From positions 1-35,912 of the IMG/VR virus record IMGVR_UViG_3300025600_000014: 35,912 nucleotides of DNA, one strand, 5' to 3'. Position numbers and translations under genes: made by a program. Numbering within the stretch: the first letter of the stretch is position 1; every line of letters begins with the position of its first letter. Source of the stretch: a virus (Duplodnaviria; Caudoviricetes). The notes under the pieces were generated by a model. It was not told the origin of the DNA and did no database searches. It was given only the letters and a program-made list of their open reading frames with translations. Shown piece by piece: positions 3,801 to 31,441 of the stretch.

Positions 3801-4565
3801 ATGGCACAGAGCGGCGATTATACCTATACGCAATCTGGCGGTAACGCCACCATCACGGCTTATACGGGGGCGGGCGGCGCTATAACAATCCCATCAACGC
3901 TAGATACGTATCCGGTTGTTGCTATCGGGACTACTGCGTTCTACGGTAAGACTCCGACCAGCGTAATTATCCCGAATAGCGTAACCAGTATTGGCAGCAT
4001 GGCATTCTATCATATTGTGGGATTGACTAGCGTGACTATTGGGAATGGCGTAGTTAGTATTGGAGCTAGTGCATTCGAGGGTTGTTCAGGACTGACCAGT
4101 GTGACTATCGGGAGTGGCGTAACCAGCATTGGAGCTGATGCGTTCCATGATTGTACTGTGCTGACCGGCTTAATCATTCCCAATAGCGTGACCAGCATTG
4201 GCGGTAGTGCATTTGCTAGTTGTACGTCTCTAACCGCTTTGTCCATCCCCAACAGCGTAACCAGCATTGGGAATACTGCTTTCTATAATTGTACGGGACT
4301 GACTACTGTAATCATCGGGAGCGGCGTTACCAGTATTGGCAATAATGTGTTTCTGGATTGTTCCGCACTGGTAACGGCACACTTCCACGGAAATGCCCCT
4401 GCGACGTGGGGGACTACCGTGTTCTCTGGTGTTCATGCTGGCTTTGTCATCTATTACTATACAGGAGCAACTGGGTGGACAAATCCGTTCAATACCTATA
4501 CGACAGCAGCCGAAAGTCCACCGGTAACAGTCAAACCGAACTTCATTCCATTTTTTTGGGCATAA
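3801..4565 (+). CDS. BspA/TpLRR-type (LRR_5) leucine-rich repeat protein, putative adhesin
   Basis: Tandem 23-aa LTSVTIPNSVTSIGxxAFxxC repeats. Confidence 0.9.
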   Translation: MAQSGDYTYTQSGGNATITAYTGAGGAITIPSTLDTYPVVAIGTTAFYGKTPTSVIIPNSVTSIGSMAFYHIVGLTSVTIGNGVVSIGASAFEGCSGLTSVTIGSGVTSIGADAFHDCTVLTGLIIPNSVTSIGGSAFASCTSLTALSIPNSVTSIGNTAFYNCTGLTTVIIGSGVTSIGNNVFLDCSALVTAHFHGNAPATWGTTVFSGVHAGFVIYYYTGATGWTNPFNTYTTAAESPPVTVKPNFIPFFWA

Positions 4566-4585
4566 TGTGTTTTAGGAGGAACAAC

Positions 4586-10833: not shown

Positions 10834-13076
10834 CCTTGACCCTCACGGCTTCGCAGAATAGAGAGCGTTGCACGGTCACGCTTACCGTGGCCTCTGCTGT
10901 CAGTCTGCCCTCTGCCCTTATCGTTGTGGACGGCAAGGCATACACTGGAATCTGGACATCTGGCTCCTACGTTTTCAGCTATGACCTTGCCCTCGAGCGC
11001 GGCCCGCACATCATCTACGCTCAGGCGACTGATTCAGTTGGAACGGTCTCAACAAGCCCTATCACGTATGTCATGGCCTACGAGCTATCTGAGTATGGGA
11101 TAGACGTGTATTCAGGCGACGCCAAGCTGGACGCCATTGAGCCGGTGCTGCATGATGAACTGTTCCCGGCTCTCCCTACGTTGAACTTTTCCTGTGCGGC
11201 ACTCCTGTCTGGCATCATCCAAGCCGTTATCCGAGAACGCGGCCTGAGACAATATCAGTTCGAGATTGCCACGGTCGCCATATCCGGCCCGTTCTATGTC
11301 TACACCTGCAAGGCAGCTGAGTCGTATGCCATGACCTCCGCAATCATGGCACTCCAAACGGCGTACGGCTCGACGGCAAACGCTATCTCGTTACTGGTTC
11401 CCTCGCTGAATATCGTGGGAGCGGACCTGCTGGCACAGACGACCTACCCGCAACTGTACGTGAACATCACGCCAACAGAGGTCATCAAGCAACTACTCAT
11501 CCAGTCATTGGCACAGGCATCGGTTCGCAACGGAAATTTGTACGTGTTCCCGCTGGATGTGAGCGGTCAGACACCTGACTACCACATGCAACGGTTGGAC
11601 AAGCTCACGGGCTGGCAGCGAGACGCAGATACCTTTGATGCGGTTATCGCTCATTACATCGTGAAGCAGTATCCGACACCCGACACTTTCATGACCCTTC
11701 ATGATGCTGCAAACTGGTATGGTACGGTGACAGACGTGACGCAGGTGGACCCGACATTGCTACGCCCGCCATCAGGTGCGTTGGGTATGTTGAAATCAGT
11801 AGGGGATTGCCACAGAGAAGGATTGAGCGCAGCATTCAAGTTGTTTGACCGGGTACGGTTCAATTGGTGCCCCCCCGATGTCGGCGCAACCGTCACCGTC
11901 TCGCTTCAACAGGACGCTTCAAACAAGCTGGAACTGACGCATACATTCGCCGGAGAGTCGGGCGCGGGCTTCATCCTCGAGGATGGCACAGCTACAACTG
12001 ATACCCTCACGAAAGATATCACACTATCTCCGGCTCAGCATGTCACAACCGTGGAAGGGACGACGACCGGCGCATGCTCCTATCGTGTTATCCTGTTAAA
12101 CGCCGCTGGTGCTCCTATTTGGCAAGACACTTCTGCTCCTACATTTGGGAATGTGTTCAAGGCAAATGTTCCAACATGGATATCGCAGTCCGACTACTAT
12201 CGAGCCACAACAGTGCGCATTGAGTTTACGAACCTGTACCCCATTGCTGCGAACTACGGCGTCCAAGTCATTACCTGCGACATCACCGTGCAGACATACA
12301 ACAACGTCGGGTCGCATGTGAATATGGTGTCCACTGTAAACTCCAACGTTTCCATAACCTGGAGTTCGATGTTTGGGTGTTATCGGGGCGTTTATCCCCT
12401 TCGGGGGTCAACGGGTGGACAATGGTATCAGGTCAATTCTCCTTATTATCTTACTCTGACCATGCTTCCGGATGGGTATATCCTGGATGATTACAACCAC
12501 AACTTTGGAGCAGCTGACGCTGGACCCCAACTTATATCCGTGACCGTATCCATTCTTGAAACCGTCCAGGACTACGCATGGATCTCCGCACCCTTCATTT
12601 GGAGTCCTGCCTTCAACTTGTTTGAGTCTGTCACTCTCGCGCTATCTGATTTCACTCGTACCGGTAACCCCACGAACCTCGCTACGATAGCACTCACGTG
12701 GACGGGCGACAACTACCTGGACACGCTTGTGTTGGTAGCCGATAACCCACTGCCGGTCACTGTGCGAGCTGGAACGGGGCAGCGGGCCTATACAGTAACT
12801 GATGACTTCGGCAGCGAGGCTGGAGCGCAAGCATACGCAGATGGACTTTTGCCTGTCGTGTCTGTGGCCAGAGAACAGTATACCCGGGACGTGCCGCTGT
12901 CGACCGACCTTGGTGTAGGGGATACCATCAGTGGTGATGGCGTACCCATGACGGTCTATGCAATCGACTACCGGCAGAGCGGCAAGACGCTAGCAGCGGG
13001 AAGGGCCATGGATGTTCTCATGACAAGACTGGCAGAGCAAGCGAGACGCATCGGCGCTCTCGAAAGGAAGGCATGA
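10830..13076 (+). CDS. Tail tip/hub-like protein
   Basis: Position, beta-rich sequence, C-terminal DLGVGDTI..V..I and a terminal coiled coil ARRIGALER. Confidence 0.55.
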   Translation: MTLTLTASQNRERCTVTLTVASAVSLPSALIVVDGKAYTGIWTSGSYVFSYDLALERGPHIIYAQATDSVGTVSTSPITYVMAYELSEYGIDVYSGDAKLDAIEPVLHDELFPALPTLNFSCAALLSGIIQAVIRERGLRQYQFEIATVAISGPFYVYTCKAAESYAMTSAIMALQTAYGSTANAISLLVPSLNIVGADLLAQTTYPQLYVNITPTEVIKQLLIQSLAQASVRNGNLYVFPLDVSGQTPDYHMQRLDKLTGWQRDADTFDAVIAHYIVKQYPTPDTFMTLHDAANWYGTVTDVTQVDPTLLRPPSGALGMLKSVGDCHREGLSAAFKLFDRVRFNWCPPDVGATVTVSLQQDASNKLELTHTFAGESGAGFILEDGTATTDTLTKDITLSPAQHVTTVEGTTTGACSYRVILLNAAGAPIWQDTSAPTFGNVFKANVPTWISQSDYYRATTVRIEFTNLYPIAANYGVQVITCDITVQTYNNVGSHVNMVSTVNSNVSITWSSMFGCYRGVYPLRGSTGGQWYQVNSPYYLTLTMLPDGYILDDYNHNFGAADAGPQLISVTVSILETVQDYAWISAPFIWSPAFNLFESVTLALSDFTRTGNPTNLATIALTWTGDNYLDTLVLVADNPLPVTVRAGTGQRAYTVTDDFGSEAGAQAYADGLLPVVSVAREQYTRDVPLSTDLGVGDTISGDGVPMTVYAIDYRQSGKTLAAGRAMDVLMTRLAEQARRIGALERKA

Positions 13077-13666
13077 TGAGACTAGGAACCCATCCCTCTC
13101 CTGAGGCGCGAGCAAAGATGTCTGCGGCTTGGATTGGACGTGTTGTATCTCTTGAAACTAGAGCAAAGATGTCCGCATTGCATAAAGGACAGAAGGCTTG
13201 GAACAAGGGAATTTCACCGTCAGATGAGACTCGAGCAAAAATCTCTGCTGCGGGAATGGGGCGTATTCCATCCCCTGAAACAAGAGCAAAACAGGCTTTA
13301 GCAGAAAAGGGGAAGACGGTATCACCTGAGACGTGCGCAAGGTTGTCTGCTGCGCTTATTGGAAAACCAGCATGGAATAAGGGTGTTTCCCCGTCAGATG
13401 AAACTCGGGTGAAAATTGGTATAGGACATTGGAAGGGCGGACCAAGGGTATCTATGCGTAAACGTCGTTCCAAGCGCCGCCTACTTGGTTTTAATCCATT
13501 GAACTCTTGGTTTATGGATTGTGAGGCTCACCACATCAACCAGAATGATGTGATTCACATACCGAGGAAGTTGCATCGCAGTATCTACCACGACCAATAC
13601 ACCGGACGGGGCATGGCACAGATGAACGCACTAGCAGGACAGTACCTGATGGAAAACTGGACATAG
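13073..13666 (+). CDS. NUMOD3-repeat HNH-like endonuclease (type A, ~6 repeats)
   Basis: SxETRAK repeats; KRRLLGFNPLN..CEAHH..IHIPRKLHRSIYHDQYTG. Confidence 0.85.
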   Translation: MMRLGTHPSPEARAKMSAAWIGRVVSLETRAKMSALHKGQKAWNKGISPSDETRAKISAAGMGRIPSPETRAKQALAEKGKTVSPETCARLSAALIGKPAWNKGVSPSDETRVKIGIGHWKGGPRVSMRKRRSKRRLLGFNPLNSWFMDCEAHHINQNDVIHIPRKLHRSIYHDQYTGRGMAQMNALAGQYLMENWT

Positions 13667-15279: not shown

Positions 15280-15669
15280 ATGGTACCTATCGATTGGAAC
15301 CCCGTTATCCTTGCAATCGTCGCTCTTATCAGCACGGTCATCGTCACGCTGGCTCCCGTGATGGTTACGGCATATATCAACGCACACACGGCAAAGCTCA
15401 TACAGGTGAAAACATTGGCCGACAATAACCAAGACATCGCTAATGGAATTGTGGCGATTGTCCAGAATGCGTATAAGACCTTCACGAACAGCGAGAAGTT
15501 CCAAGCTGCCTTTGAGAAATTGGACGCGCGGCTTCACCTTCCGGCTGGCGAAACACAGCAGTTGATTGAGCAGGCCGTTTCAGTGATGACGCTCACGTGG
15601 GGTGACGCCTGGGAAAAGCTTGGTGAAACGACTCCGACCGAGATTCCTGTGGTTCCTCCTGCGGTATGA
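15280..15669 (+). CDS. Holin (LL-H-like)
   Basis: N-terminal TM helix, then EKFQAAFEKL and QQLIEQAV. Confidence 0.7.
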   Translation: MVPIDWNPVILAIVALISTVIVTLAPVMVTAYINAHTAKLIQVKTLADNNQDIANGIVAIVQNAYKTFTNSEKFQAAFEKLDARLHLPAGETQQLIEQAVSVMTLTWGDAWEKLGETTPTEIPVVPPAV

Positions 15670-15860
15670 CAGAATTGACAAACGGTGATCTTCTCCTGGA
15701 CAACGGCATTGTCATTCCGGCAGCCAAGCGTACCAGGACTGAGGTTTACAGCCGCGTTGTTGGCTATCTGAGGCCTGTTTCCCAGTGGAACAAGGGGAAG
15801 AAGGCTGAATGGGCGGACAGGGTTCCTTTCGCGGTTTCTCCTGCTGTCTTGCACGGCTAG
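15666..15860 (+). CDS. Stand-alone class III RNR (NrdD) C-terminal glycyl-radical domain protein, copy 1
   Basis: EVYSRVVGYLRPVSQWNKGKKAEWADR matches the NrdD RxxGY..N.GK..E...R end; ATGA-coupled to the holin. Confidence 0.85.
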   Translation: MTELTNGDLLLDNGIVIPAAKRTRTEVYSRVVGYLRPVSQWNKGKKAEWADRVPFAVSPAVLHG

Positions 15861-15877
15861 AAAGAGTATTATACTAT
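15849..15877 (+). promoter_or_regulatory. Sigma70-like promoter
   Basis: TTGCAC-17 bp-TACTAT, with an overlapping TATACT. Confidence 0.5.
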
Positions 15878-15878
15878 T

Positions 15879-15967
15879 GGTGGTAGCTAGGATAGGTTCA
15901 TGACCCTCCGAAGCCGGTCTTATCCCCGGTGCTACCGCTTTGTCAAATGGGATGAGAAAGGATAGGT
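15879..15967 (+). ncRNA. Three-way-junction/pseudoknot leader RNA, copy 1
   Basis: P1 GGTGGTAGC/GCTACCGCT, P2, GAA, P3 GCCGG/CCGGT; loop TCTTATCC is complementary to GGATGAGA and GGATAGG downstream. Confidence 0.65.
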
Positions 15968-15976
15968 GAAAGACAA

Positions 15977-16414
15977 ATGGGATATGGACACTCTCAGTCA
16001 GAAGAAACCAGAGCAAAAATATCTGCCGCCAGAAAAGGAATTCCGATAACAGACAAACAGCGATTAGCGCGCATGGGTCATTACGTATCCCCAGAAGCTT
16101 GTGCAAAAATGTCTGTGGCGCAAATGGGCCATTTCGTATCTCCCGAAATGCGTATGAAAATTTCCGTGGCCGTGTGGAGGGGCGGGACACAAGTATGGAC
16201 GCGCAAATCCAAGGCCAAACGTCGCATGTTGGGTTTTGTTCCCATGAATCAACCGTTTGATGGTTGCGAAGCACATCACATCAATCAGAGCGACATCATC
16301 TATATCCCGAGCGAATTGCACCGCAGTATTAGTCATAACCAGTGGACTGGTCGCGGGATGGAACAGATCAATGCTCTTGCTACGGCTTGGCTTACTAGCG
16401 AATTAACTCAATAA
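15977..16414 (+). CDS. NUMOD3-repeat HNH-like endonuclease (type A, ~4 repeats)
   Basis: KRRMLGFVPMN..CEAHH..IYIPSELHRSISHNQWTG. Confidence 0.85.
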   Translation: MGYGHSQSEETRAKISAARKGIPITDKQRLARMGHYVSPEACAKMSVAQMGHFVSPEMRMKISVAVWRGGTQVWTRKSKAKRRMLGFVPMNQPFDGCEAHHINQSDIIYIPSELHRSISHNQWTGRGMEQINALATAWLTSELTQ

Positions 16415-16418
16415 AGTT

Positions 16419-16595
16419 GACCCGGAAGATTCAGCGCGGCAACGCCTTCCGGGTCGTGTGAACTTCTGCCTCTGCCACTTGGCAGAGACGCTGGAGGTGC
16501 AATTTGAGTACACGCACCAGCACGTCAGGGCGTAGCTCCTGGCGCGTCTTATCTTGTACCATACTTTCTGCATTTTTCACGTGCAATCGTTCACA
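16419..16595 (+). ncRNA. Candidate structured intergenic RNA
   Basis: GACCCGGAAG/CTTCCGGGTC, TGTGAAC/GTTCACA, CTCTGCC/GGCAGAG, AGACGC/GCGTCT and CGTCAGG/CCTGGCG. Confidence 0.45.
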
Positions 16596-16613
16596 TTTGA
16601 AAAAGGTTGGCGC

Positions 16614-16916
16614 GTGGTAATCATCACCGTGGAACGTGTACCGCGCAAGATGTTGGCGGTGTATGCAGATAAGGATGGCAATATCCCGCTCGGGGTAACA
16701 CTGACCCCCAGTAAGGACGATCGATTCAAGAAAATAGAGATCCTGGTTCAAGAGAAACTACCCCAGTACAAAGCTCGCCTTGTGCTTGCGCATGAGTTGT
16801 TCCATGCGTACCAATATCTGGCGGGGTGCGCGATGGAGGAGCAGGCCAATAACGAGATCGATGTGGTCATGGTCAAGGCCCTCGTCGACAAGAAGAAGCG
16901 CAAGGGGAAGCGTTGA
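16614..16916 (+). CDS. Small HExxH zinc-metallopeptidase-like protein (ImmA/IrrE-like)
   Basis: VLAHELFHAY followed by EEQAN; GTG start after AAAGG. Confidence 0.6.
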   Translation: MVIITVERVPRKMLAVYADKDGNIPLGVTLTPSKDDRFKKIEILVQEKLPQYKARLVLAHELFHAYQYLAGCAMEEQANNEIDVVMVKALVDKKKRKGKR

Positions 16917-17698
16917 GACTCATCGAAGCAAGCGACAAGCGCAAGGCCGTATACCTTCTGCCGCTTGGCGACGTCCATGCCGGTTCGGGCCAGACAGATT
17001 ACCAGAAATTCGAAGGGTATATCGATTGGGCAAAGCGCGAGAAGGCATACATTTTCCTCATGGGAGACATGTTCGACACAGTAGTCATGGGCGGCGTTTC
17101 CAGTCCATTTGACGCATCCATGAATCTCAGAGAGGCGAAAAAGTACATGAAAGACCGGCTCATGCCCGTAAAGCATCTTATCATCGGGGGTATCATAGGC
17201 AACCACGAAATGCGACTCATGCGCTATGCCAATGAAGATCTGATGGAAGACCTCTGTGATACGCTCGGGGTTCCCTACGCCAGGTTCTCTGCGGTTCTCC
17301 GATTGAACATCGGACGCAAAACGGGCGACGGCGGAAAGACCGATACAACGCGCGTCCACTATGTTGCCTATTGTCATCACACGACGGGCGGCGGCGGGAC
17401 ACCCGGGGGCAGATTGAACCGGGTCTATAAGCTCTCAGACATTTTCGAAGGGGCCGACGTGCTCATCGGTGCTCATAATCACATGCAGGCGGGTGTGCCA
17501 GTTGATAAGTACCGGCTCCATGTATCTGCATCGGGAAAGGCAACCCTCAGTGCAGATAAGCAGTTCCTCGTTGACTCGGGTTCTTTTGTCAAATGGAATG
17601 AGTCGTATGCAGAAGAGAAAATGCTTGCCCCTTCCCATTGCGGCTGTCCACGAATTCGACTGGATGGTGCGCGTAAGGACGTCCACGTCTCGGAATAG
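16913..17698 (+). CDS. Calcineurin-like metallophosphoesterase
   Basis: LGDVH, MGD..D, GNHE, HH and AHNH motifs. Confidence 0.9.
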   Translation: MRLIEASDKRKAVYLLPLGDVHAGSGQTDYQKFEGYIDWAKREKAYIFLMGDMFDTVVMGGVSSPFDASMNLREAKKYMKDRLMPVKHLIIGGIIGNHEMRLMRYANEDLMEDLCDTLGVPYARFSAVLRLNIGRKTGDGGKTDTTRVHYVAYCHHTTGGGGTPGGRLNRVYKLSDIFEGADVLIGAHNHMQAGVPVDKYRLHVSASGKATLSADKQFLVDSGSFVKWNESYAEEKMLAPSHCGCPRIRLDGARKDVHVSE

Positions 17699-17700
17699 TA

Positions 17701-18093
17701 TCGTGACGCAGTAGTCCACGGTTGCAACCTATGGGACATCCGTGGCAGGCCAGCGAGCCAGCACTAATAGTGCCTGCGTTCTCAGATGGCGACAGTCTGA
17801 GATTAAATGGTTACGGGCCAGCCAGGATTAAGGCAACAGCCCCCGCCAGGACTGACCTCTCGCGCTTATCTTCCAAAAACTAGGATCGGGCGCACCAAAT
17901 CAGGCGGGATGAACGGCCCGAAATGCTGGGGTTCAAGTTCCCCGCTAAGCGTGATGTTTGAGTTGTAAGCAATTTCTTTACAACTGGTTCCCGCCGTTCA
18001 CCATATTGCCTTAGCGGGCCAAGCTGAAGATGCCGCGCGATAGGGCGTTCGGCCAGTCGTACCCCCAGCCTGTTCGGTGACTGGGGGTCTTTT
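17701..18093 (+). ncRNA. Candidate large structured ncRNA
   Basis: No credible ORF; more than ten short helices including long-range ones; ends in a terminator. Confidence 0.55.
18061..18093 (+). terminator. Intrinsic terminator ending the late transcription unit
   Basis: ACCCCCAG...CTGGGGGT followed by CTTTT. Confidence 0.75.
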
Positions 18094-18947
18094 CATGTCC
18101 ACTTGGCTCTAGGCAGTTTGTTCCAGTATTGCCCAGAAAGGTTAGTATTCATGGAGCAGAACGGCACTATCCGATGGAGTTATCCATTTGGCATAACACG
18201 TTTCGTGTTACACCGCATGATGTGTACGAACCTTTAAGCCGGTTAAGGTTGCGGGGTACTTGATTGGTACGTTGATAAGGCCACTATTATCGGATAACCC
18301 CGAAAACTAAAATAGCGGCACTCGCTATTATCGTTTGGGATAGATACGGATTTGAGTATACATCTCAGATGGCAAATTGTACCCTTCGTGCGTTTAATGC
18401 ACATCTGTCCATCTATCTGCATATTTTGGACATATCCTTCTGCATATGGGCATGGCGGGTACACATCATTATTGTAACTTTCCTGCGTTCAGGGGTATTC
18501 CATATACGGCTATGCACGCTTTTGACAAGTTGATGCAAAAAATGCACCTACTCGAACTCACGAGGATTCCTCGTATGTTCCTTAGAAATATTTGAAGTAT
18601 CCGGTTTTTCCAGACGGTTGGTCCTGATTTCTGTGGTCAAAGCTAGAAATAGCCCCGTTAAAGTGTTGTGGTCACATGTTGCAGGCCATTGTTGTGACGA
18701 AATGGTCAGGCGAACCGTCTGCGCTAAATATACATTTTTGTATATTTCAAGCATATGCGTTGCAGAAAATTGTCGCAAGTTGTCACAGTAACCCCACTCT
18801 ACCCTGTACTGCCATTTTATAGGAGAATTGGCGGCAATAAACGTCCATTCATACAGCGAGATATGAAAACCCCGCAAAACGCACAGAAATGGCATTAGCC
18901 GCAATATGTATAAACAGTATTGACAACTTGCCACATTTATGGCACAT

Positions 18948-18976
18948 TTGCCACAGTTCCGATTTTGTGTTATACT
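18948..18976 (+). promoter_or_regulatory. Early promoter (sigma70, extended -10) overlapped by TTGCCACA direct repeats
   Basis: TTGCCA-17 bp-TATACT with TG at 18968-69; TTGCCACA at 18928 and 18948. Confidence 0.7.
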
Positions 18977-19254
18977 AAAAAGGACGTAGCGTACCCAACC
19001 CCACTTCGGCAAAAGTGGGGTTTCCTTATACCCACTCCCCACTGTGAAGATTATGCTATTTTCATTCACAATCATGCTGTTCACAAAATAGAAATCGGAT
19101 TAAGATATTAGCAGCAAGGGGAACAAGGGTTCCCAACCGTAAGCGAAAGTAGCGCACTGATAACTCAAAAAGGCTCCCGATACCAGACACCATCACGATA
19201 GTTGGCTACTCGGTCCCAGAATGCGATCTAAAAATCTAACCAAAGGAGATAGAT

Positions 19255-19524
19255 ATGACGAATCGAATGGTTGTCTTAACCGGCTACCGCATGGAATCAC
19301 TTAAACGGCACGACCGCAAGAAGTACGACCGCTTGAATGAAATGGTTTCAGATGGACTTAGAGACAGTCCCGAACCCGACATCGAGTGGAACTCTACGGT
19401 TGGCAGACTGGAACCCAAACCCGACCCTGAACCCGATCGTTGTGCTTGGGTATGCCCTAGTACCTGTCGTAATTGTCTCGTTGAAAACTGTGCCGATAGA
19501 CTGGCGGGAGGGGTCAATGAATGA
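19255..19524 (+). CDS. Hypothetical early protein with a Cys-rich C-terminus
   Basis: SD AAGGAG; CAWVCPSTCRNCLVENC. Confidence 0.7.
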   Translation: MTNRMVVLTGYRMESLKRHDRKKYDRLNEMVSDGLRDSPEPDIEWNSTVGRLEPKPDPEPDRCAWVCPSTCRNCLVENCADRLAGGVNE

Positions 19525-19642
19525 AGAACAGAAAGAAGCAATAGAAATCATTCTGTGCGCTGTTTCGCGTCAAGAGATATACCTCTCGACCGCCATGAAA
19601 CAGATCGAAGCAATCTGGCCGAAAGCGGCGGGAGGTGAGTGA
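19517..19642 (+). CDS. Small hypothetical protein
   Basis: SD GGAGGGG; overlaps both neighbours. Confidence 0.55.
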   Translation: MNEEQKEAIEIILCAVSRQEIYLSTAMKQIEAIWPKAAGGE

Positions 19643-19881
19643 TGCTAAGTAGTGGACAGGTGACAGCATTGGACGCCGTCAAGGTTTCGGTCGCTCGCAA
19701 GTTTTCTTATGACCGCTCAGACGGCAACGGGAATCGAGAAGCGGGACTGACATTGCGATGCAGAATTGGAGAGCCGGTTACCATCACTGGCCATTGCCAG
19801 ACGGTTGACGAACTCGAATACGCCGTGGCTCGTCTCATTGCCACAGCAAGAAGGGAGGTGGGGCATGGCAAAGCAGTGTAA
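19639..19881 (+). CDS. Hypothetical protein
   Basis: SD GGAGGTG; coupled start. Confidence 0.6.
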   Translation: MMLSSGQVTALDAVKVSVARKFSYDRSDGNGNREAGLTLRCRIGEPVTITGHCQTVDELEYAVARLIATARREVGHGKAV

Positions 19882-20092
19882 CCCACTACGTGAGTGGAGG
19901 TGGAACAGAATGATGACGACCGCCAATGCTGCGCGAGAACTTGGATTGCTCCCTGAAACATATCGGACTCTTGAATATCTGCCAAGCAAACTGAGTATCA
20001 CCACTGACACAATCTTGCACATCGCAAGCATAACACACATCCCGCTGGAAGTCCTCGTAGACTATCTCGAATCGAACCACGCCCCTGCTTGA
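19865..20092 (+). CDS. Cro/XRE-type helix-turn-helix regulator
   Basis: LREWRWNRMMTTANAARELGLLPETYRTLE..TILHIASITHIPLEVL; SD GGAGGTG. Confidence 0.7.
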   Translation: MAKQCNPLREWRWNRMMTTANAARELGLLPETYRTLEYLPSKLSITTDTILHIASITHIPLEVLVDYLESNHAPA

Positions 20093-20116
20093 CATGAACC
20101 CGATTCCGAGTACAAT
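20089..20116 (+). promoter_or_regulatory. Sigma70-like promoter
   Basis: TTGACA-16 bp-TACAAT. Confidence 0.75.
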
Positions 20117-20121
20117 ATATA

Positions 20122-20208
20122 CAGCAGCCTAGCGTGGCGTAATTAACCACGTGAAACTAGACTCCTTTCTAGGGGCTGCTGCCATCAAAACAAAGGAGAC
20201 AAAGGAGT
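20122..20208 (+). ncRNA. Three-way-junction/pseudoknot leader RNA, copy 2
   Basis: P1 CAGCAGCC/GGCTGCTG, P2 GCGTGG/CCACGT, GAAA, P3 CTAG/CTAG; loop ACTCCTTT is complementary to AAAGGAG and AAAGGAGT (SD). Confidence 0.7.
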
Positions 20209-20216
20209 GTGAGACA

Positions 20217-20756
20217 ATGAAGCTTGGACAGCACATGACAGACGAACAGCGAGCCAAAGAGTCTGCGTCAAAATTGGGGCATACCACATCAATTGAAACG
20301 CGGGCAAAGATATCTTCGACGCGCATGGGGATTAGACCATCACCTGAAACGCGGGCAAGGGTATCTGAAATCCTTATGGGCCACGTCGTTACCCCCGAGA
20401 CGCGAACAAAGACGTCAGCATGGCAACAGGGGCGCAAACTTTCGCCTGAAACGTGTGCGAAGATAGCTATTGCGCATTGGAGGGGCGGTCAGAAAATGGC
20501 CGACGCCAGAACTCGCGCCAAGCGCCGCACGCTCGGTTTCAATCCTCTGAACTCTCCCCTTTCGGGATGTGAGGGTCATCACGTCAATCGGCTTGACGTC
20601 ATCTATATGCCCACAAAACTACATCAAAGCATCCATCACAATCAGCATACTGGCAGAGGAATGGCGCAGATGAACGCCATTGCCTACAATTTTCTATTCA
20701 AACAAGAGGTGGAAGCCGCAATCGCGGCAAAGGAGACAACCAATGTTAGTGGCTAA
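20217..20756 (+). CDS. NUMOD3-repeat HNH-like endonuclease (type A, ~5 repeats)
   Basis: ATG 20217 after the SD; KRRTLGFNPLN..CEGHH..IYMPTKLHQSIHHNQHTG. Confidence 0.85.
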   Translation: MKLGQHMTDEQRAKESASKLGHTTSIETRAKISSTRMGIRPSPETRARVSEILMGHVVTPETRTKTSAWQQGRKLSPETCAKIAIAHWRGGQKMADARTRAKRRTLGFNPLNSPLSGCEGHHVNRLDVIYMPTKLHQSIHHNQHTGRGMAQMNAIAYNFLFKQEVEAAIAAKETTNVSG

Positions 20757-21570
20757 GAACGAGGGTAGCGAACGCATCCTTATACCGGCCGGAACACACG
20801 TCGCGCGTTGCTATGGAATGATTGATCTGGGAACGCAATATTCAGAGAAGTTCGGGAACTGGAGTCACAAAATCCAGGTACAGTTTGAACTCTGTAACGA
20901 ATTAATGGATGATGGCAGACCTTTGGCTATTAGCAAGAAATATACGCTCAGCCTTAACGACAAGGCTAGCCTGAGGAAAGACCTTGAAAGCTGGTTGGGA
21001 AGAGGCATCACCGAGAAAGAAGAGAAAGCGGGGTTCGCGCTTGGTTCTATGTTGGGCGCTCCGTGTTTGCTCTCCGTGATTCATGCTGAGAGTGGCGGCA
21101 AGACGTACGCGAACGTGGCGGGCGTGATGTCTGTACCAAAAGGAACAACCGTGCCCGAACAGAGCAATCCTATGATTTCCTATGATGTGGAAAATGGAAA
21201 GGATGTGGTGTGGGAAAAGCTGCCCGAATGGATCCGAACCATGATTGAGCAGAGCAAGGAGTTCAAGGACGGCGACGAACCGACACCCGAAGAAGCTGCC
21301 GACACCTCTATGCCGTTTCCCGACATTCCCGAAGAGTCGACCGAACCAGCCACACCACCTGAGACCTATATCTACGGTCCTAAGACCTATACCCGTGAGG
21401 AGTGGTTGGACAGTCTGCATCAAGCGTCTGCATTTGACCATCTGCCCGAACCTGCAGATATGGATGCCATGAAGCATGATGACCTACTGGCGGCTGGCAA
21501 GGTGATGATCAAGCAGTTGCAGGACTTCTGCGCGACGAACAAGAAGAAAACAGAAAAGAAGGCCTCGTGA
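20743..21570 (+). CDS. Phage ssDNA-binding/replication-associated protein (NGO0469-like)
   Basis: IPAGTHVARCYGMIDLGTQ..YTLSLNDKASLRKDLESW..G.PC.LSV.H..YANV, followed by an acidic linker. Confidence 0.6.
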   Translation: MLVAKNEGSERILIPAGTHVARCYGMIDLGTQYSEKFGNWSHKIQVQFELCNELMDDGRPLAISKKYTLSLNDKASLRKDLESWLGRGITEKEEKAGFALGSMLGAPCLLSVIHAESGGKTYANVAGVMSVPKGTTVPEQSNPMISYDVENGKDVVWEKLPEWIRTMIEQSKEFKDGDEPTPEEAADTSMPFPDIPEESTEPATPPETYIYGPKTYTREEWLDSLHQASAFDHLPEPADMDAMKHDDLLAAGKVMIKQLQDFCATNKKKTEKKAS

Positions 21571-21571
21571 A

Positions 21572-21757
21572 ATGGTCACAGCCGAAGAACTTGCAATCCT
21601 CAAAAAGTCGCCCCATGAGCTGGCGGTTACCGTGGCTCTGCTATGTCTGGCGAATGGTATCCCGGCAGTCAAGGTCCTGGAGGACGTGTACCGTGAGGGT
21701 CAAAGGTCGGTAACCGACGATCCACAGGCATGGGGACTAATTGGAGGCAGGGCGTGA
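21572..21757 (+). CDS. Hypothetical protein
   Basis: Tightly packed ORF in the early operon. Confidence 0.55.
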   Translation: MVTAEELAILKKSPHELAVTVALLCLANGIPAVKVLEDVYREGQRSVTDDPQAWGLIGGRA

Positions 21758-21915
21758 GATATAGAATACATCATTTTGTGCTAGCAGAATTGGCCGAGGA
21801 CAACTTTATCGTATCCGGCGACACCATAGAAGAAGTCCGGGCAGCGGCGAAACGGGAACTGGCAAGAAGGGGTTGGAAAGAAGAAGATTGTTGGTCGGAG
21901 GACTTGCCATGCTGA
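21754..21915 (+). CDS. Hypothetical protein
   Basis: SD GGAGG; GTGA overlap with the previous gene. Confidence 0.55.
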   Translation: MRYRIHHFVLAELAEDNFIVSGDTIEEVRAAAKRELARRGWKEEDCWSEDLPC

Positions 21916-22325
21916 CCCCTCCCTGCAACACGCAAGCGAACGAGTACATCGACAAGATGTTTGCTGCCCTGTCAACGCTTGGCACCCTGAATGAGCTGTA
22001 CCGTACCGAATTGGGTGATGCTATCAACAAGTCTGCCGCCTTCAAGCTACTGTATGCCACGGTGTTGATTGAAGAAAAGGCGGGGCCGGACGTCAAGGTC
22101 ACCGTCGACGAACTCAAAGCCAAAGTCACGAAGCGCGTCAACGCCGCCGAAAAGGTTGCCGATATTGCCGAAGCCCTCAGTAAGGGTACCAGGGAGGCGA
22201 TGGAGCTGCAGAAAGAAACGATCGGGGCCTGTCAGTCGGCCCTTGCCTACGCCAAAGCAGAACTGGAAGCAACGCCGAACGCAAACCCACCGAACCATGA
22301 GCCATTGTTTGGAGGTGTGACATGA
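21909..22325 (+). CDS. Hypothetical coiled-coil protein
   Basis: SD GGAGG; helical sequence. Confidence 0.6.
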   Translation: MLTPPCNTQANEYIDKMFAALSTLGTLNELYRTELGDAINKSAAFKLLYATVLIEEKAGPDVKVTVDELKAKVTKRVNAAEKVADIAEALSKGTREAMELQKETIGACQSALAYAKAELEATPNANPPNHEPLFGGVT

Positions 22326-22546
22326 GCGAGAAAACAATCCGCACCATTACCATCAAGGCCGAGGGTGAACTTGGGCTTACCCCCGATGTTGCTGGGCTGA
22401 TATCCTCTTGCGTCAAAATGCACGCCGAGAATGGAAGGGAGACGGGCGACCTGTACTTCCAAGACTTACACGTCACCTATTCTTATGCTGAGCACAAGGT
22501 GGTCAAGAAGGGGCCGAAGAAGAAGCCCGTGGAGGTATCCGTATGA
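22322..22546 (+). CDS. Hypothetical protein
   Basis: SD GGAGGTG; ATGA overlap. Confidence 0.6.
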   Translation: MSEKTIRTITIKAEGELGLTPDVAGLISSCVKMHAENGRETGDLYFQDLHVTYSYAEHKVVKKGPKKKPVEVSV

Positions 22547-22710
22547 ACACCTTGACCGCTCTTGAATTACGCAAGCACGACCTCCGGCAGGACCTGGTAC
22601 ATACTGCGAAAACCTATGGAAAGGCCGCCCGGGAGACGGCGAAGATTATGCACAAGATCCAGGAAGTGCAGCGGGCAGAAAGTTATCTCAAAAGGGAGAT
22701 GACAACATGA
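22543..22710 (+). CDS. Small hypothetical protein (55 aa, not in the ORF track)
   Basis: SD GGAGGT; ATGA overlaps at both ends. Confidence 0.55.
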   Translation: MNTLTALELRKHDLRQDLVHTAKTYGKAARETAKIMHKIQEVQRAESYLKREMTT

Positions 22711-22868
22711 TCATTTTCATTCTCTGGTTCATTCTCTGTCTCATGGTGGCTGGACTTTGGAGCTGGAAGGGCAGAAGTTACGCAGGTGGGTTTTGGCTTA
22801 GCTTCTTCTTTTCCCCATTGGTCGGATTCATTGTTGGGATTTGTCTTGCCCCGGCAAGGCGGGCATGA
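22707..22868 (+). CDS. Small two-TM membrane protein (53 aa, not in the ORF track)
   Basis: MIIFILWFILCLMVAGLWSWKGRSYAGGFWLSFFFSPLVGFIVGICLAP; ATGA overlaps. Confidence 0.65.
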   Translation: MIIFILWFILCLMVAGLWSWKGRSYAGGFWLSFFFSPLVGFIVGICLAPARRA

Positions 22869-23344
22869 GTACCTTGATCCCGGCAGAGAATAAGTTTCAT
22901 AAAGGTAATGGCGCGGACGGGAAGCACTACTGGTTAACCCCGCCCGCCCTGTTCCAACGATTGTTGGCGCGATTTGGTTTTACCTTTGACCCCTGTCCTT
23001 ATCCAAAGCCCGATGACTTCGACGGTTTGACTTGTGAGTGGGAATCATCTAACTATGTCAACCCCCCCTTTGGATCCATTATTCACCAAGGGAAAAAGAA
23101 GGGGCCGACGGCGTGGGCTAGAAAGGCGATTGAGGAAAACAAGAAGGGGAAGCGCGTTGTTCTTGTCTATCCGATTGATAAGTGGATATTGATGCTGTTG
23201 GCGGCTGGCGCGACAGTAGAGAACCTTGGGGACGTAAGGTGGCTTGCGACAGAGGATGGTTCTGAGGGGAAAGGAACGGGGCGGCACATAGCCTGTTTCA
23301 TTTTGGAACCGCCCCCCATCTCTACAAACGGTAATTTACGGTGA
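22865..23344 (+). CDS. Phage DNA N6-adenine methyltransferase (Dam-like)
   Basis: WLTPP..F..FDPCP..DGL..W..YVNPPF (NPPF catalytic motif). Confidence 0.8.
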   Translation: MSTLIPAENKFHKGNGADGKHYWLTPPALFQRLLARFGFTFDPCPYPKPDDFDGLTCEWESSNYVNPPFGSIIHQGKKKGPTAWARKAIEENKKGKRVVLVYPIDKWILMLLAAGATVENLGDVRWLATEDGSEGKGTGRHIACFILEPPPISTNGNLR

Positions 23345-23374
23345 TGGAAAATCTGCCCGCTATTCATGCGGCAT

Positions 23375-23502
23375 CCAGCAAAGGGTATACACTAGGGGGT
23401 ATCAACTGTTTCCAAAATGGAAATAGCTCAGACAGAACAACTGGGCATCCATCGATAGTCTAGACGAACATACCCCCCCCCGGCGCGAGTCCCCGCTGCT
23501 GG
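23375..23502 (+). ncRNA. Candidate multibranch structured element
   Basis: CCAGCA/TGCTGG encloses GGGGGTAT/ATACCCCC, CTGTTTCCA/TGGAAATAG and CTCAG/CTGGG. Confidence 0.4.
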
Positions 23503-23503
23503 G

Positions 23504-23531
23504 TTGTGCGGCTAGTCGTTTCTGCTATACT
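23504..23531 (+). promoter_or_regulatory. Promoter (extended -10)
   Basis: TTGTGC-16 bp-TATACT with TG at 23523-24. Confidence 0.55.
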
Positions 23532-23537
23532 GATATG

Positions 23538-23621
23538 GGAGACGGCTTGGGACAGTTAGCTACTGTTCGACAGCCGACCATACCGGCGCCGCCTCCATCT
23601 TTCTTTTGTATGGTGTATGGT
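23538..23621 (+). ncRNA. Three-way-junction/pseudoknot leader RNA, copy 3
   Basis: P1 GGAGACGGC/GCCGCCTCC, P2 GGACAGT/ACTGTTC, GACA, P3 GCCG/CGGC; loop ACCATAC is complementary to tandem GTATGGT GTATGGT. Confidence 0.65.
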
Positions 23622-23706
23622 GAGAGTCTTGTGCGGAGCCTCCCACCAATAGGAATGGCAAAATCCTAACTAGGTTTGGAGGTGAGTATGTACTGCTCAG
23701 CGGCAA

Positions 23707-24741
23707 ATGAGTCTTGAAAATCCCCAACTTGAAGACGGCCACCTTAGGATCGTCAACAGCATAGCCGAAACCCTTGCGCGTACCCAGTTGTCCGGGTACG
23801 AGTCGCGGGTTTTATGGTTTCTCTGGCGCAAGACCTATGGCTGGTCGAAGAAAACCGACCTTATAAGTCTAAGCCAGTGGGTTGATGGGACTGGCATATG
23901 CAAGCAACATGTCGCCACCACTATCAAGCGTCTTGTCCAGCGCAACATCATCATCAAGTACGCCGGACGCAAAGCGACCGTAACCGAAATCGGTAATGAT
24001 AGGGGCGTAACCGAAATCGGTTACGGCGTTATCTGTATGTATGAATTCAACAAGCGTTATGGCACTTGGCAATCGTTACCGAAATCGGTTACGTTACCGA
24101 AATCGGTTACGGAGGTGGTACCGAAATCGGTACCCACAACAGATACTCTTACAACAGATAAAGGATTAAAAGAAAAAGATTGCGCCGAAAATGAAAAAAC
24201 CGGCGCTCCTCTCTTCGAAAATCTTCCTGAAGTCATCAAAGAACCAGAGACTAAACCAGACAAGGCAATCCAGGTTACGACTTCTGTTCCCTATCTGTTG
24301 GCTTCCTGGTTCTATTCCTCGCGCGGTATTCCCGCTCAGCCCACCCCTGCCGATATGCGGAACTTTAAGCTGTTGTTGCAGTTCTACTCTGAGTCTGTCA
24401 TCAAAAAGGGTATTGAGTGGCGACTTACCTCTGATTCTGATGGGTATTGGACAACGCATATTTCGTCTGCTTCTATCTATCGCAACTTTGGCAACTGGAT
24501 GGCAGAATCGTCAGTCAAGGCAATCAGTCTGAGACAATGGGTTCAGCAGAATCCCGACATGGACTTTGATCGTTTCGTTGACCCTCTTGCCCGCGCTGAT
24601 GCTTTTATGCGGGCGTTCAATGAGGCGAAGAAGAATCGGCTGGTGTACTTTGAAGACGCAGACTATGCCATGTACAAGAAGGCAATCCGCATTAAGACAG
24701 CGGAATCCAAAGCAGAGACAAAGGAGGTAAATCGTGGTTGA
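23707..24741 (+). CDS. Replication initiator, lambda O-like (Phage_rep_O N-terminus)
   Basis: PQLEDGHLRIVNSIAETL..LSGYESRVL..LWRKTYGWSKK.D.ISLSQ; internal iterons. Confidence 0.85.
   Translation: MSLENPQLEDGHLRIVNSIAETLARTQLSGYESRVLWFLWRKTYGWSKKTDLISLSQWVDGTGICKQHVATTIKRLVQRNIIIKYAGRKATVTEIGNDRGVTEIGYGVICMYEFNKRYGTWQSLPKSVTLPKSVTEVVPKSVPTTDTLTTDKGLKEKDCAENEKTGAPLFENLPEVIKEPETKPDKAIQVTTSVPYLLASWFYSSRGIPAQPTPADMRNFKLLLQFYSESVIKKGIEWRLTSDSDGYWTTHISSASIYRNFGNWMAESSVKAISLRQWVQQNPDMDFDRFVDPLARADAFMRAFNEAKKNRLVYFEDADYAMYKKAIRIKTAESKAETKEVNRG
23979..24134. repeat. Replication-origin iterons: five copies of palindromic ACCGAAATCGGT
   Basis: Copies at 23983, 24010, 24078, 24096 and 24120, followed by an A-rich tract. 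Confidence 0.85.
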
Positions 24742-25981: not shown

Positions 25982-26250
25982 ATCAGTATGACAGCATGAC
26001 TGTTGATGAACTGTTGTTTGAGTATGCGGAATGGGCGCGTAACCATGCTGGAACTCATTGGGAGATACATGGGGAAAAGGGCGTGGTTGTTGATGATGAG
26101 AATCCGTTGAATGTGGTGGCAAGAAAACATGCCCTTGTTGCCGCCCTTCGTCGCAAGGTTATCGAAGAGGCAAGCGTGGGGGTGGTGAAACTGTCGCATA
26201 ATGGTGTGGCAAGCGACTACGACATCGTTCCTCACAAGGAGACCACATGA
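25978..26250 (+). CDS. Hypothetical protein
   Basis: SD AAGGAGGTG; ATGA overlap. Confidence 0.6.
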   Translation: MNQYDSMTVDELLFEYAEWARNHAGTHWEIHGEKGVVVDDENPLNVVARKHALVAALRRKVIEEASVGVVKLSHNGVASDYDIVPHKETT

Positions 26251-26444
26251 CAGAGTTGCAGAACGGTGATCTCCAACTGGACAACGGTGTCATCATCCCG
26301 GCAGCCAAGCGTACCAGGTGTGAGGTCTATAGCAGGGTTGTTGGTTATTTGAGACCCGTAGCCCAGTGGAACAAGGGGAAGAAGGCGGAATGGGCGGATA
26401 GAATATGCTTTACGGCCACAACAACGCCAAAGGAGACCAAATGA
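26247..26444 (+). CDS. Stand-alone class III RNR (NrdD) C-terminal glycyl-radical domain protein, copy 2
   Basis: CEVYSRVVGYLRPVAQWNKGKKAEWADR; SD AAGGAG. Confidence 0.85.
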   Translation: MTELQNGDLQLDNGVIIPAAKRTRCEVYSRVVGYLRPVAQWNKGKKAEWADRICFTATTTPKETK

Positions 26445-28820: not shown

Positions 28821-28848
28821 TTGACTGGGGACAAAAATACGGTATAAT
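28821..28848 (+). promoter_or_regulatory. Late promoter
   Basis: TTGACT-16 bp-TATAAT upstream of terS. Confidence 0.75.
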
Positions 28849-28936
28849 ATAATCTGCAAATGGTGACCCTCGTAGCCGCGCCGGCAAGCGCGAAACATCA
28901 GTTTCTATCGGATATACAGGATTCTTATAACTATAC

Positions 28937-28984
28937 GCCCCACTCATCCCTTCGCATAGTCGGGGGACAGGTGGGGCTTTCTTC
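28937..28984 (+). terminator. Terminator/attenuator in the late leader
   Basis: GCCCCAC..TCCCTTCG/CGGGGGA..GTGGGGC followed by TTTCTTC. Confidence 0.55.
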
Positions 28985-29035
28985 ATATCCAGACATAGGA
29001 ACCCTACGAAGAATTGCAAACGGTACATCCAATAT

Positions 29036-29103
29036 GGTGAGCGCATTTGACAAGGCTGTGACTGCGGTCGCGCCTGCTCGGGTTAGAGTCCCGAGGCTCA
29101 CCA
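29036..29103 (+). ncRNA. tRNA-like small RNA (acceptor stem and T-arm, no D-stem or canonical anticodon arm)
   Basis: GGTGAGC/GCTCACC-A; CTCGGG-TTAGAGT-CCCGAG; inner AGGC/GCCT and GTGAC-TGCG-GTCGC. Confidence 0.5.
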
Positions 29104-29137
29104 ACCCTCCATGGATAGCTATTGAGGATCTGCCGTA

Positions 29138-29560: not shown

Positions 29561-30858
29561 ACGCCCCCCGTATCTGCGACGACCTCGAAACAATAGGGCA
29601 GATCAGGACGCAGGAAGGGTTGCGTCCATTGGTCTTGTTTCCTTGGCAGCGCGAGTTCATCAAGGCAACGCTATCACATGACAGGATTGCCGTGCTGAAG
29701 AGTCGTGACATTGGCAGCTCTACTGTGGCGGTGATCCTCTACACCTATCTCGCAATGGTATTTGGGGGAGATCTAGTCATCTGTTCGTATAAGCTGGACT
29801 CTGCCAAGTCGCTATTCGAGACGGCAAGAACGTTCATTGCCAATTTGCCCGAAGCGTGGCAACCCATAGCAAGGCTCAAAACGGATACCGACTACCATGC
29901 CATACTCCCAAATGGATCGCACCTGAGAGCAATGGAAATGACGAAGAACGTAGGCCGCTCATTCCGAGCCAAGTATCTGCTTGCTTCTGAGTTGGCCTTT
30001 TGGAGTTCCCCCCGTGAAAGTTGGCAGGCTGTGAGTGGTTCAGGTGTTGCGGGCATGTCCATTACTGCCGAATCAACTCCCAACCCTGGTCCTGAAGGTT
30101 CTCTATTCGAGTCCCTATTGGACAATCCTGCGTGGTATCGGATGGAACAGAACTATGAGGGCAACCCCGCGCATACAGAAGCGTGGCGTGTGTCCAAACT
30201 TGCAGAGTTGGACGGTGATGAGGAAAGGTTCGCTCAGGAATATGCCTGTAGTCTGAACAAAGCCTCGATGAACAAGTCTGTCATTCCTCTCGCTTCCATT
30301 CTTGCCGCTATGGGTCGCGTTCACACTGGAACTGATTTGCCTCATGTTCTCGGAGTCGACGTCGCCAGATTCGGGTCCGACAACAGCGTTATAACTGTTC
30401 GACACGGTAATGCGGTCATCAGTCAAGAGAGTATTCATGGTATGGATTTAATGACCTTGGCAAAGCGCGTACGTGATGTTGCAGCAGAAGATATGAGCGA
30501 GGCTGTGAACGTCGATGTGATTGGGATAGGCGCTGGGGTAGTCGACGCGCTCAATGACATGGGTGTTCAAGGCGTCAACGGTGTGAATGTGGCAGAACAG
30601 GCTTGGGACTCTGAGAAGTTTGCGAATAGGAAAGCCGAATTGTACTGGGGTCTCAGAGATCGCTTTCTCAATGACGATATCTGCATTCCTGATGATCAAG
30701 ACTTGAAGCGAGAGTTGATGGTGACGTTTGATTATACCATCACTGGAAAAATCTGCATCCAAAGTAAGGACCGCGTCAAAGAGACGCTGGGCAGGTCCCC
30801 CGACAGAGCCGAATCCCTGATGCTCGCTTTCACGCCAAGCATGTGTGTGGTCGCCTAA
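29557..30858 (+). CDS. terL: Terminase large subunit
   Basis: PWQ, VLKSRDIGSST (Walker A), LLASELAFW (Walker B), ESTPN, GVDVARFGSD and SPDRAES. Confidence 0.93.
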   Translation: MNAPRICDDLETIGQIRTQEGLRPLVLFPWQREFIKATLSHDRIAVLKSRDIGSSTVAVILYTYLAMVFGGDLVICSYKLDSAKSLFETARTFIANLPEAWQPIARLKTDTDYHAILPNGSHLRAMEMTKNVGRSFRAKYLLASELAFWSSPRESWQAVSGSGVAGMSITAESTPNPGPEGSLFESLLDNPAWYRMEQNYEGNPAHTEAWRVSKLAELDGDEERFAQEYACSLNKASMNKSVIPLASILAAMGRVHTGTDLPHVLGVDVARFGSDNSVITVRHGNAVISQESIHGMDLMTLAKRVRDVAAEDMSEAVNVDVIGIGAGVVDALNDMGVQGVNGVNVAEQAWDSEKFANRKAELYWGLRDRFLNDDICIPDDQDLKRELMVTFDYTITGKICIQSKDRVKETLGRSPDRAESLMLAFTPSMCVVA

Positions 30859-30859
30859 G

Positions 30860-31441
30860 ATGCCAACGGGAATATACGTACGGACAGAAGCGCAGAAGAG
30901 GAACATTTCTGCTGGCATGATGGGAAACCAAAACCGCCTTGGGGGTCACGTTTCAGATGAAACCAAAGCAAAGATTTCTGCGACAATGGCGGGCGTATCC
31001 AAGTCCGATGAGACAAGGGGGCACATGTCAATTGCTCAAGTGGGGCACCCAGTATCCCTTGACGCTCGTGCAAACATGTCTATGGCACAGAGAGGGAACA
31101 CAAACAGGCGGGGCCGCCACCTTGTTTACTCAGAAGAAACTTGGGCAAGGTTGTCCGCTGCCCACATGGGTTTAGGTTGGAAGGGCGGTCCAATGGCATT
31201 TAGGCGCAGGTCTAAGGCTAAGCGCCGCTTGCTCGGGTTTGTTCCATTGAATGAGTGCTTTGTTGGTTGCGAAGGGCATCACATTGACAACGAACGGGTC
31301 ATCAATATGCCTCACGCTCTGCATCGTAGCGTTTACCATAATCAGCATACTGGACAGGGCATGGCAAAGATTAACGCGATTGCCTACAACTTCCTTTTCA
31401 AGCAGGAAGTAGAAGAGGCATTGGAGGCAAGACGTGGCTAA
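30860..31441 (+). CDS. NUMOD3-repeat HNH-like endonuclease (type A, ~5 repeats)
   Basis: KRRLLGFVPLN..CEGHH..INMPHALHRSVYHNQHTG. Confidence 0.85.
   Translation: MPTGIYVRTEAQKRNISAGMMGNQNRLGGHVSDETKAKISATMAGVSKSDETRGHMSIAQVGHPVSLDARANMSMAQRGNTNRRGRHLVYSEETWARLSAAHMGLGWKGGPMAFRRRSKAKRRLLGFVPLNECFVGCEGHHIDNERVINMPHALHRSVYHNQHTGQGMAKINAIAYNFLFKQEVEEALEARRG

Follow-up and report, generated by a model that had tools for sequence, protein, structure and literature searches.

The virus record IMGVR_UViG_3300025600_000014 (Duplodnaviria; Caudoviricetes), analysed over its whole length of 35,912 nucleotides (nt) and called the window below, carries three sequence-divergent copies of a leader RNA folded as a three-way junction, in which an outer stem (P1) encloses two hairpins (P2 and P3). 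The RNA belongs to a real, covarying family that is apparently undescribed, and it is almost certainly a functional RNA structure. Its P3 loop is complementary to two tandem targets just downstream. Its P2 loop contains a palindrome, missed in the preliminary description of this DNA, through which two RNA molecules are likely to kiss. Judged from these sequence patterns, there is about an even chance that the leader is a homodimeric, concentration-sensing repressor of translation.

The leader RNA and its homologs

Copy 1 follows a promoter-like site at 15849-15875 (-35-like TTGCAC at 15849-15854 and -10 box TATACT at 15870-15875, a match to consensus only); like all features of the three copies and the genes behind them, it lies on the plus strand. 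The junction spans 15880-15938, with P1 at 15880-15887/15931-15938, P2 at 15890-15909, P3 at 15914-15929 and the P3 loop at 15918-15925. The P2 loop holds the palindrome TCATGA (15898-15903), a predicted kissing site. Target 1 (15950-15957) can pair with the P3 loop over 8 bp, one of them G-U, and target 2 (15960-15966) over 7 bp, overlapping a Shine-Dalgarno (SD)-like AGGTGA in a feature that extends over 15960-15969. Copy 2 lies behind a promoter-like TTGACA-16-TACAAT (20089-20116, 11/12 consensus match) and spans 20122-20181, with P1 at 20122-20129/20174-20181, P2 at 20132-20152, palindrome TAATTA at 20140-20145, P3 at 20157-20172 and the P3 loop at 20161-20168; its targets offer 7 bp (20192-20198) and 8 bp (20201-20208), the second including the SD sequence AGGAG with an ATG 8 nt downstream. 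Copy 3 (23538-23596) follows a -10 box TATACT at 23526-23531 and comprises P1 at 23538-23546/23588-23596, P2 at 23550-23568, palindrome TAGCTA at 23557-23562, P3 at 23573-23587 and the P3 loop at 23577-23583; its two targets of 7 bp each are directly adjacent (23608-23614 and 23615-23621, together 23608-23621). The layout, coordinates, -10 boxes and both targets of all three copies agree with the preliminary description. Its identification of target 2 as the SD in copies 1 and 2 is correct for copy 2, where AGGAG lies inside the target, but not for copy 1, where only the 5' part of AGGTGA is overlapped. The SD of copy 3 is separate from target 2 and lies about 57 nt further downstream within a hairpin.

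The three-way junction is both the minimum free energy (MFE) and the centroid structure for all three core folds (z = -2.0, -4.0 and -3.2), and 6, 0 and 2 of 200 shuffles fold as well as copies 1, 2 and 3. A strict two-target descriptor finds three sites in the window and none in 30 shuffles; it was derived from the three copies themselves, so the homologs are the real test. A loose one-target descriptor gave seven matches against a shuffle mean of 6.0, which by itself is chance level. The covariance model described below found no fourth copy in the window (next best E 0.13). Contigs from another run (X2) are identical to all three copy regions, with 0 differences.

Homologs were gathered by protein-seeded and pattern scans, followed by a covariance model built from 22 copies. 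At E ≤ 0.001 the resulting set, drawn from 29 sources, comprises 37 distinct full-length matches, 15 of them outside the training set; matches cut by the end of a locus (L073, L310 and one in L024) and near-duplicates (L016, L088 and L092) were left out. Counts of rows below refer to this alignment, which was fitted to the model. Fifteen of the 16 helix pairs in P1, P2 and P3 change on both sides, and 92.6% of helix cells are paired, against 71.7% after shuffling and 33-50% in slid controls; the covariation counts are inflated by sequence relatedness, yet the pair types are many (40 beyond the first). The earlier observation that stems differ between copies while pairing is kept is borne out across the 37 homologs. 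Few unpaired bases are invariant: a U, a G-A and a C are conserved in the junction, and both loops vary freely. In 33 rows a TAnnnT box precedes the RNA by 5-11 nt, and the start codon is usually 7-10 nt past target 2.

The family looks confined to one phage group. The model matches 23 of 64 whole virus records at E ≤ 0.001, and none of 80 endonuclease VII loci from other phages at the same threshold. Of 36 metagenome matches from the pattern scan, 14 scored E < 0.001 with the model; the seven from genome contigs had neither targets nor a model score. BLAST searches of copy 2 against plasmids and of copy 1 against cultured phages gave no match, and close relatives of the initiator and the terminase included no named host; the source data sets carry the label peat metagenome. 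A search of the window against Rfam 15 returned no match at the gathering score or at E ≤ 5, in agreement with the earlier statement that no named Rfam family could be assigned, and 15 homolog loci yielded only two tRNAs and three weak snoRNA matches, all outside the motif. No description of the motif was found in the open literature (subscription journals lay outside the search) or, by term search, in the main text of PMC5737381. Candidate RNAs preceding HNH or NUMOD3 genes are tabulated in PMC10690425; the five we looked up are of marine, freshwater or gut origin, as compared by their table entries rather than by alignment.

A compact three-way junction with a pseudoknot, placed in a 5' leader over an SD, might suggest a ligand-sensing riboswitch or a self-cleaving ribozyme. 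We consider either highly improbable, given the lack of any Rfam match at E ≤ 5, the scarcity of invariant unpaired bases and downstream genes without a common metabolite theme; moreover, the RNA begins at the predicted +1, which leaves a ribozyme no upstream strand to cut. The ligand control entertained in the preliminary description receives no support from loops that vary freely around a few conserved junction bases. Nor does self-cleavage: the hammerhead core CUGAnGA occurs in 0 of 37 rows. A tRNA-like or RNase P substrate was also rejected, as a CCA follows an acceptor-like stem in only 3 of 37 rows (a loose test) and ARAGORN reports 0 tRNAs in the window, and the predicted +1 at the very start of the RNA led us to discard an xrRNA-like exonuclease block.

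P3-loop targets and the P2-loop palindrome

Pairs between the P3 loop and its targets were not part of the covariance model. Two-sided changes nevertheless occur in six of seven loop pairs with target 1 and in six of eight with target 2, where 91.4% of cells are paired, and the rows contain 23 distinct P3 loop sequences. The cognate loop makes at least 7 bp with two sites in 26 of 37 rows, against 1.4% of 1296 non-cognate pairs; at a threshold of at least 6 bp the values are 31 of 37 and 6.6%. Spacing between targets stays at 0-4 nt. This covariation argues for selection on target 1 as well as on target 2. Most copies have an A-rich linker to target 1, as would be expected of a pseudoknot formed in cis.

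The 9-nt P2 loop has the layout 2+6+1, and its alignment columns 24-27 are palindromic in 33 of 37 rows. Eight different palindromes occur: AATT and TATA (7 rows each), AGCT (6), CATG (4), GATC (3), and TCGA, CGCG and TGCA (2 each). Eight of the nine distinct ungapped cores are palindromic, compared with 1 in 16 by chance, and 10000 column shuffles gave a mean of 4.7 palindromic rows and a maximum of 13. Ranked by corrected mutual information, columns 24/27 are the top pair of the alignment and columns 25/26 the fifth. Because the central columns are neighbours, unable to pair within one strand, the partner must be another molecule. Among rows outside the training set 12 of 15 are palindromic, including TCGA, a core absent from training. 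Cassettes 96% and 93% identical elsewhere differ by a whole palindrome (TATA/TCGA and TATA/AATT), and seven P3 loops are each found combined with two or more P2 cores. We think it probable that the palindrome has some intermolecular role.

Palindromes and tandem repeats raise the question of whether the element acts as DNA, for example as a cruciform, an operator or an insertion footprint, without any role for RNA. The P2 cores are four-base palindromes like restriction or methylation sites and contain no G-T pairs, and tandem repeats about 10 nt apart resemble operators. The palindrome axis, on the other hand, lies half a base off the P2 axis, and this offset, with the G-U pairs in the stems, makes a DNA dyad less likely. 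G-U pairs are tolerated in P2 and in both target helices, which points to RNA; the distance from the -10 box is fixed, and loop and both repeats covary across the 23 loop sequences. A purely DNA-level element consequently has very little probability.

The preliminary description had proposed a switch in cis, in which the P3 loop pairs with either a decoy or the SD copy. Covariation upholds the part of this proposal in which a leader's P3 loop pairs with both targets, the second at the ribosome-binding site, but the P2-loop palindrome is left unexplained; the alternative given there, an RNA acting in trans, is closer to the evidence, since the covarying palindrome points to a second molecule. 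A kinetic timer in cis would stay close to the original model: the P3 loop would catch target 1 during transcription (ON) and slide to a stronger target 2 (OFF), with the palindrome tuning the rate or serving otherwise. Both targets are within reach of the linker, a subclass without P2 (see below) retains both, and in computed duplexes the P3 loop of 25 of 37 rows binds target 2 more strongly than target 1, for the most part through a single extra A-U pair. Target 1 is stronger in nine (one of them, L311, an artefact), and three are tied. A one-way slide to target 2 does not predict the stronger target 1 of window copy 1, of all four TCTTATCC-loop copies (by about 2 kcal/mol) or of the P2-less class (7-8 bp against 6 bp), and it leaves the strongest covarying pair, columns 24/27, without explanation. 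We regard such a timer as unlikely.

A candidate dimeric repressor and the genes downstream

A dimer offers two P3 loops to two adjacent targets, and the simplest joint reading places a transcript's own loop on target 1 and the loop of a second copy on target 2. On a new transcript the A-rich linker would let the P3 loop fold back onto target 1; target 2 and the SD would stay accessible and the gene would be ON. A second copy would then dock P2 loop to P2 loop, and its P3 loop would pair with target 2 and block the ribosome, turning the gene OFF; in relatives of copy 3, target 2 would act through an anti-SD relay. Since the loop of a second copy is needed at target 2, repression would be concentration-dependent. 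When both partners are full-length transcripts, the loop of the second is already occupied, and the most plausible effective repressor would thus be a leader fragment, as yet hypothetical, whose own targets have been removed by 3' decay. Expression would take the form of a pulse that ends as leader RNA accumulates, and a cassette arriving with matching codes in both loops would be silenced by the RNA already present. Repression rather than activation is suggested because target 2 overlaps the SD and because initiators are needed at low copy number.

More tentatively, the leader may be a two-key repressor, in which kissing counts copies and the two loops of the dimer clamp a tandem operator on the mRNA, much as a dimeric protein repressor does on DNA, with the P2 and P3 keys swapped independently. 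If so, a combinatorial code would limit homing nucleases, set the dose of the initiator and confer cassette-specific immunity in a phage in which no integrase or CI-type repressor was detected. Regulatory RNA homodimers are rare, and in a 2022 paper concentration sensing by RNA dimerisation is raised only as a possibility (PMC9104694). With a 100-nt RNA, its natural compensatory variants and a simple reporter, such sensing could be tested directly in this family, which would also provide a compact, recodable feedback part of which nature has varied 8 kissing cores and 23 recognition loops.

Several observations weigh against the dimeric repressor. Kissing duplexes are computed to be weak (median -3.4 kcal/mol; -0.6 to +0.6 for AU-only cores), the energy of the extended P2 duplex is poorly separated from a random-core control (-6.8 vs -5.1 kcal/mol), and the outer pair of the P2 6-mer fails in 16 of 35 rows. 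Four of the 37 rows lack a palindromic core (TGCT twice, and two that are poorly aligned), as does the P2 loop at one population contig end. Loop codes within a genome are no more orthogonal than chance, with one shared P2 core in 14 pairs against about 1.5 expected, a comparison of little power. The predominance of a stronger target 2 (25 of 37 rows) fits an activating dimer or the timer in cis. A U-tract after P1 is absent from most copies, for which reason the free leader fragment is hypothetical.

Four leaders, three of them distinct in sequence, have no P2 at all (L009:50-128, L024:3303-3385, L026:8266-8345 and L019:4931-5010). Here a plain hairpin of 12-13 bp with an 8-nt loop follows the -10 box, and two tandem targets over the SD are kept in the absence of a loop palindrome. 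Duplication of the target, then, does not need the kiss, a further point against dimer control. These leaders occupy the same genomic slot as window copy 1, and one precedes an HNH-like gene; all have one common loop core, so they provide no target covariation.

The copy-3 subtype (window copy 3, L037, L315 and L042) has a conserved SD-hiding hairpin downstream of target 2. In the window this hairpin spans 23639-23686, and its 5' arm has an alternative pairing partner in target 2 together with the bases that follow it, a predicted relay in which one compensatory change was noted by eye between the window and L042. With target 2 blocked, the cost of opening the SD changes by +2-6 kcal/mol in 100-nt fragments and by -0.3 to 2.4 kcal/mol in 115-nt fragments. 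The modelled anti-SD relay is plausible, although its energetics are weak and the SD is paired in the MFE structures of both states, which again speaks against the repressor as proposed. Among the changes seen in population variants, one in target 1 and another in P3 leave pairing intact through G-U. A TTG start after target 2 and a 9-codon ORF (open reading frame) at 23688-23717, which overlaps the initiator start, were dropped as functional elements because both vary in population contigs.

The first gene downstream is nuclease-like in 28 of the 37 copies and a replication initiator in six. The first ORFs comprise eight endonuclease VII and five HNH genes (by Pfam or PHROGs), 15 members of a family whose N-termini are of the NUMOD3 or zinc-ribbon kind and whose conserved HH...H...N domain is HNH-like by motif only, two cut or frameshifted relatives, the six initiators and one unknown 70-aa ORF. 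In eight further copies the initiator is an overlapping second gene (six scanned or matched, two by likeness); in L037 and L315 its start codon could not be placed. In the window, copies 1 and 2 precede NUMOD3 proteins of 145 aa (15977-16414) and 179 aa (20217-20756) with HNH-like C-terminal domains, and copy 3 precedes, as had been noted, a replication initiator, here O-like (344 aa, 23707-24741; PF04492, E 1.2e-21; also PHROGs). Of the earlier NUMOD3-HNH assignment of the first two genes, Pfam confirms NUMOD3 but not HNH, which is a motif-level call only. The HNH-like domain has invariant HH, H, H and N residues on a predicted strand-strand-helix; fold and sequence searches gave no clear match, Pfam WHH matching weakly in 1 of 17 such proteins (E 0.028) and the best PDB row, T5 endonuclease (Z 2.9, rmsd 4.3, 70 aligned), being tied with unrelated ones. 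The domain is shared by five paralogs in the window (298-1038, 13073-13666, 15977-16414, 20217-20756 and 30845-31441) and is joined to NUMOD3 or zinc-ribbon N-termini across the phage group. Nine NUMOD3- or HNH-like genes lie in the window, two of them behind RNA copies; according to the covariance model no copy precedes any of the remaining seven, which for the most part overlap or abut the gene in front of them.

A dimer might instead activate. The monomer's P3 loop would sit on target 2 (OFF), and kissing would move the loops to target 1 and free the SD, so that nucleases were made only at many genomes. The palindrome serves this idea equally well, target 2 is usually stronger, T4 homing endonucleases are delayed to middle or late infection (PMC2988022), and IsrK activates its own mRNA in trans (PMC4825925). 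The initiators, directly downstream in six copies and overlapping second genes in eight more, would however be needed at low copy number, and damage to target 2 would leave a copy permanently ON; an activating dimer seems to us distinctly doubtful.

Palindromes are typical sites for dimeric proteins, and a nuclease or another phage protein might bind the junction or palindrome as a ribonucleoprotein and decide which target is used. The tight link to nuclease-like genes (28 of 37) and the conserved junction U, G-A and C would be in keeping with such a leader. Yet the nucleases encoded downstream fall into no fewer than three groups and the initiators into several families, and the palindrome differs between near-identical cassettes, which base pairing fits better than protein read-out. 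Protein control of this kind is improbable.

The window, a whole 35.9-kb virus record, encodes a portal, a terminase, tail proteins, a holin and the O-like initiator; no integrase or CI-type repressor was found among the 36 and 33 ORFs scanned. Paralogous proteins of 64-65 aa (15666-15860 and 26247-26444), common in the phage group, match only the C-terminal end of NrdD (PF13597). A long stretch without clear genes (17700-18560) folds strongly, is conserved in patches of 71-98% in several relatives and rearranged in other runs, and has no Rfam or ARAGORN match; it is a possible non-coding RNA or origin. A second conserved non-coding element (18939-19156) follows a TATACT box, contains a 10-bp hairpin and is 86% identical in L147. 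At 28821-29137 a strong promoter-like TTGACT-16-TATAAT is followed by a structured 290-nt leader, partly conserved in L139 and L141, before a probable small terminase gene. Initiator genes without the motif in L014 (~4550-4846) and L033 (~11100-11392) share a different conserved, apparently structured leader after promoter-like sites. In L088 (968-1070), a variant of the L058 cassette, a deletion between short repeats runs from target 2 into the nuclease gene and removes the SD and start, and in L107 two tRNA genes (1076-1226) lie a few hundred bases upstream of a divergent motif copy.

Relation to known systems

The leader can be compared with RNAs of the P4 CI, P1 c4 and IsrK type. P4 CI RNA (seqA/seqC) and IsrK of Gifsy-1 are leader RNAs that act in trans on the transcript of their own operon; P4 CI pairs with two complementary sites flanking it and causes termination, whereas IsrK activates (PMC4825925). 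Like them, the RNA described here lies in the leader of the operon it would control, with TAnnnT upstream in 33 of 37 rows and targets downstream on the same strand. Unlike the sites that flank P4 CI, both sites follow the RNA, which begins at the predicted +1, and they lie in tandem over the SD; the second loop of the RNA, moreover, is self-complementary and it has no Rfam match.

Homing endonucleases of T4-like phages (I-TevI/II/III, segB, mobE) are controlled by simple hairpins over the ribosome-binding site in cis, which are bypassed by a late promoter inside (PMC2988022). Here too an RNA structure is predicted to limit translation of homing-type nucleases, but the promoter is upstream, a loop contacts a doubled target, and the SD lies outside the P1-P3 folds; a hairpin over the SD occurs only in the copy-3 subtype. 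In plasmids of the I-complex (RNAI/Inc, repZ pseudoknot), a kissing RNA controls translation of the initiator in a concentration-dependent manner, and its loop sets the specificity group (PMC10724649). That RNA is a counter-transcript from the opposite strand, whereas the same-strand leader would recognise itself by its palindrome; among the 16 promoter-like sites found by a consensus scan, which may miss such promoters, none on the minus strand is placed to cover any copy.

The P2 loop has the 2+6+1 layout of the HIV-1 dimerisation initiation site (DIS). In DIS a six-base palindrome in an apical loop drives homodimers (PMC7357161). Apical-loop self-complementarity is likewise kept by compensatory change in the leader (33 of 37 rows, 8 palindromes), where the dimer is predicted; DIS, in contrast, is GC-rich, fixed and serves packaging, while the cores reported here vary between copies, often contain only A and U, and are coupled to a further loop for recognition. 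ARRPOF, an RNA of bacterial mobile elements linked to replication, forms homodimers with pseudoknots that alternate between cis and trans; it differs from the present leader in being 255 nt long and domain-swapped, and tandem SD targets are not described in the section compared (PMC12990946).

By analogy, the leader would resemble P4 CI and IsrK in that an RNA from the operon's own leader acts in trans, and plasmid antisense control in that kissing senses dose, yet it is set apart from each by the features that define membership. If only the timer in cis holds, the leader is still a new RNA family, one that would control nucleases by a further form of SD sequestration.

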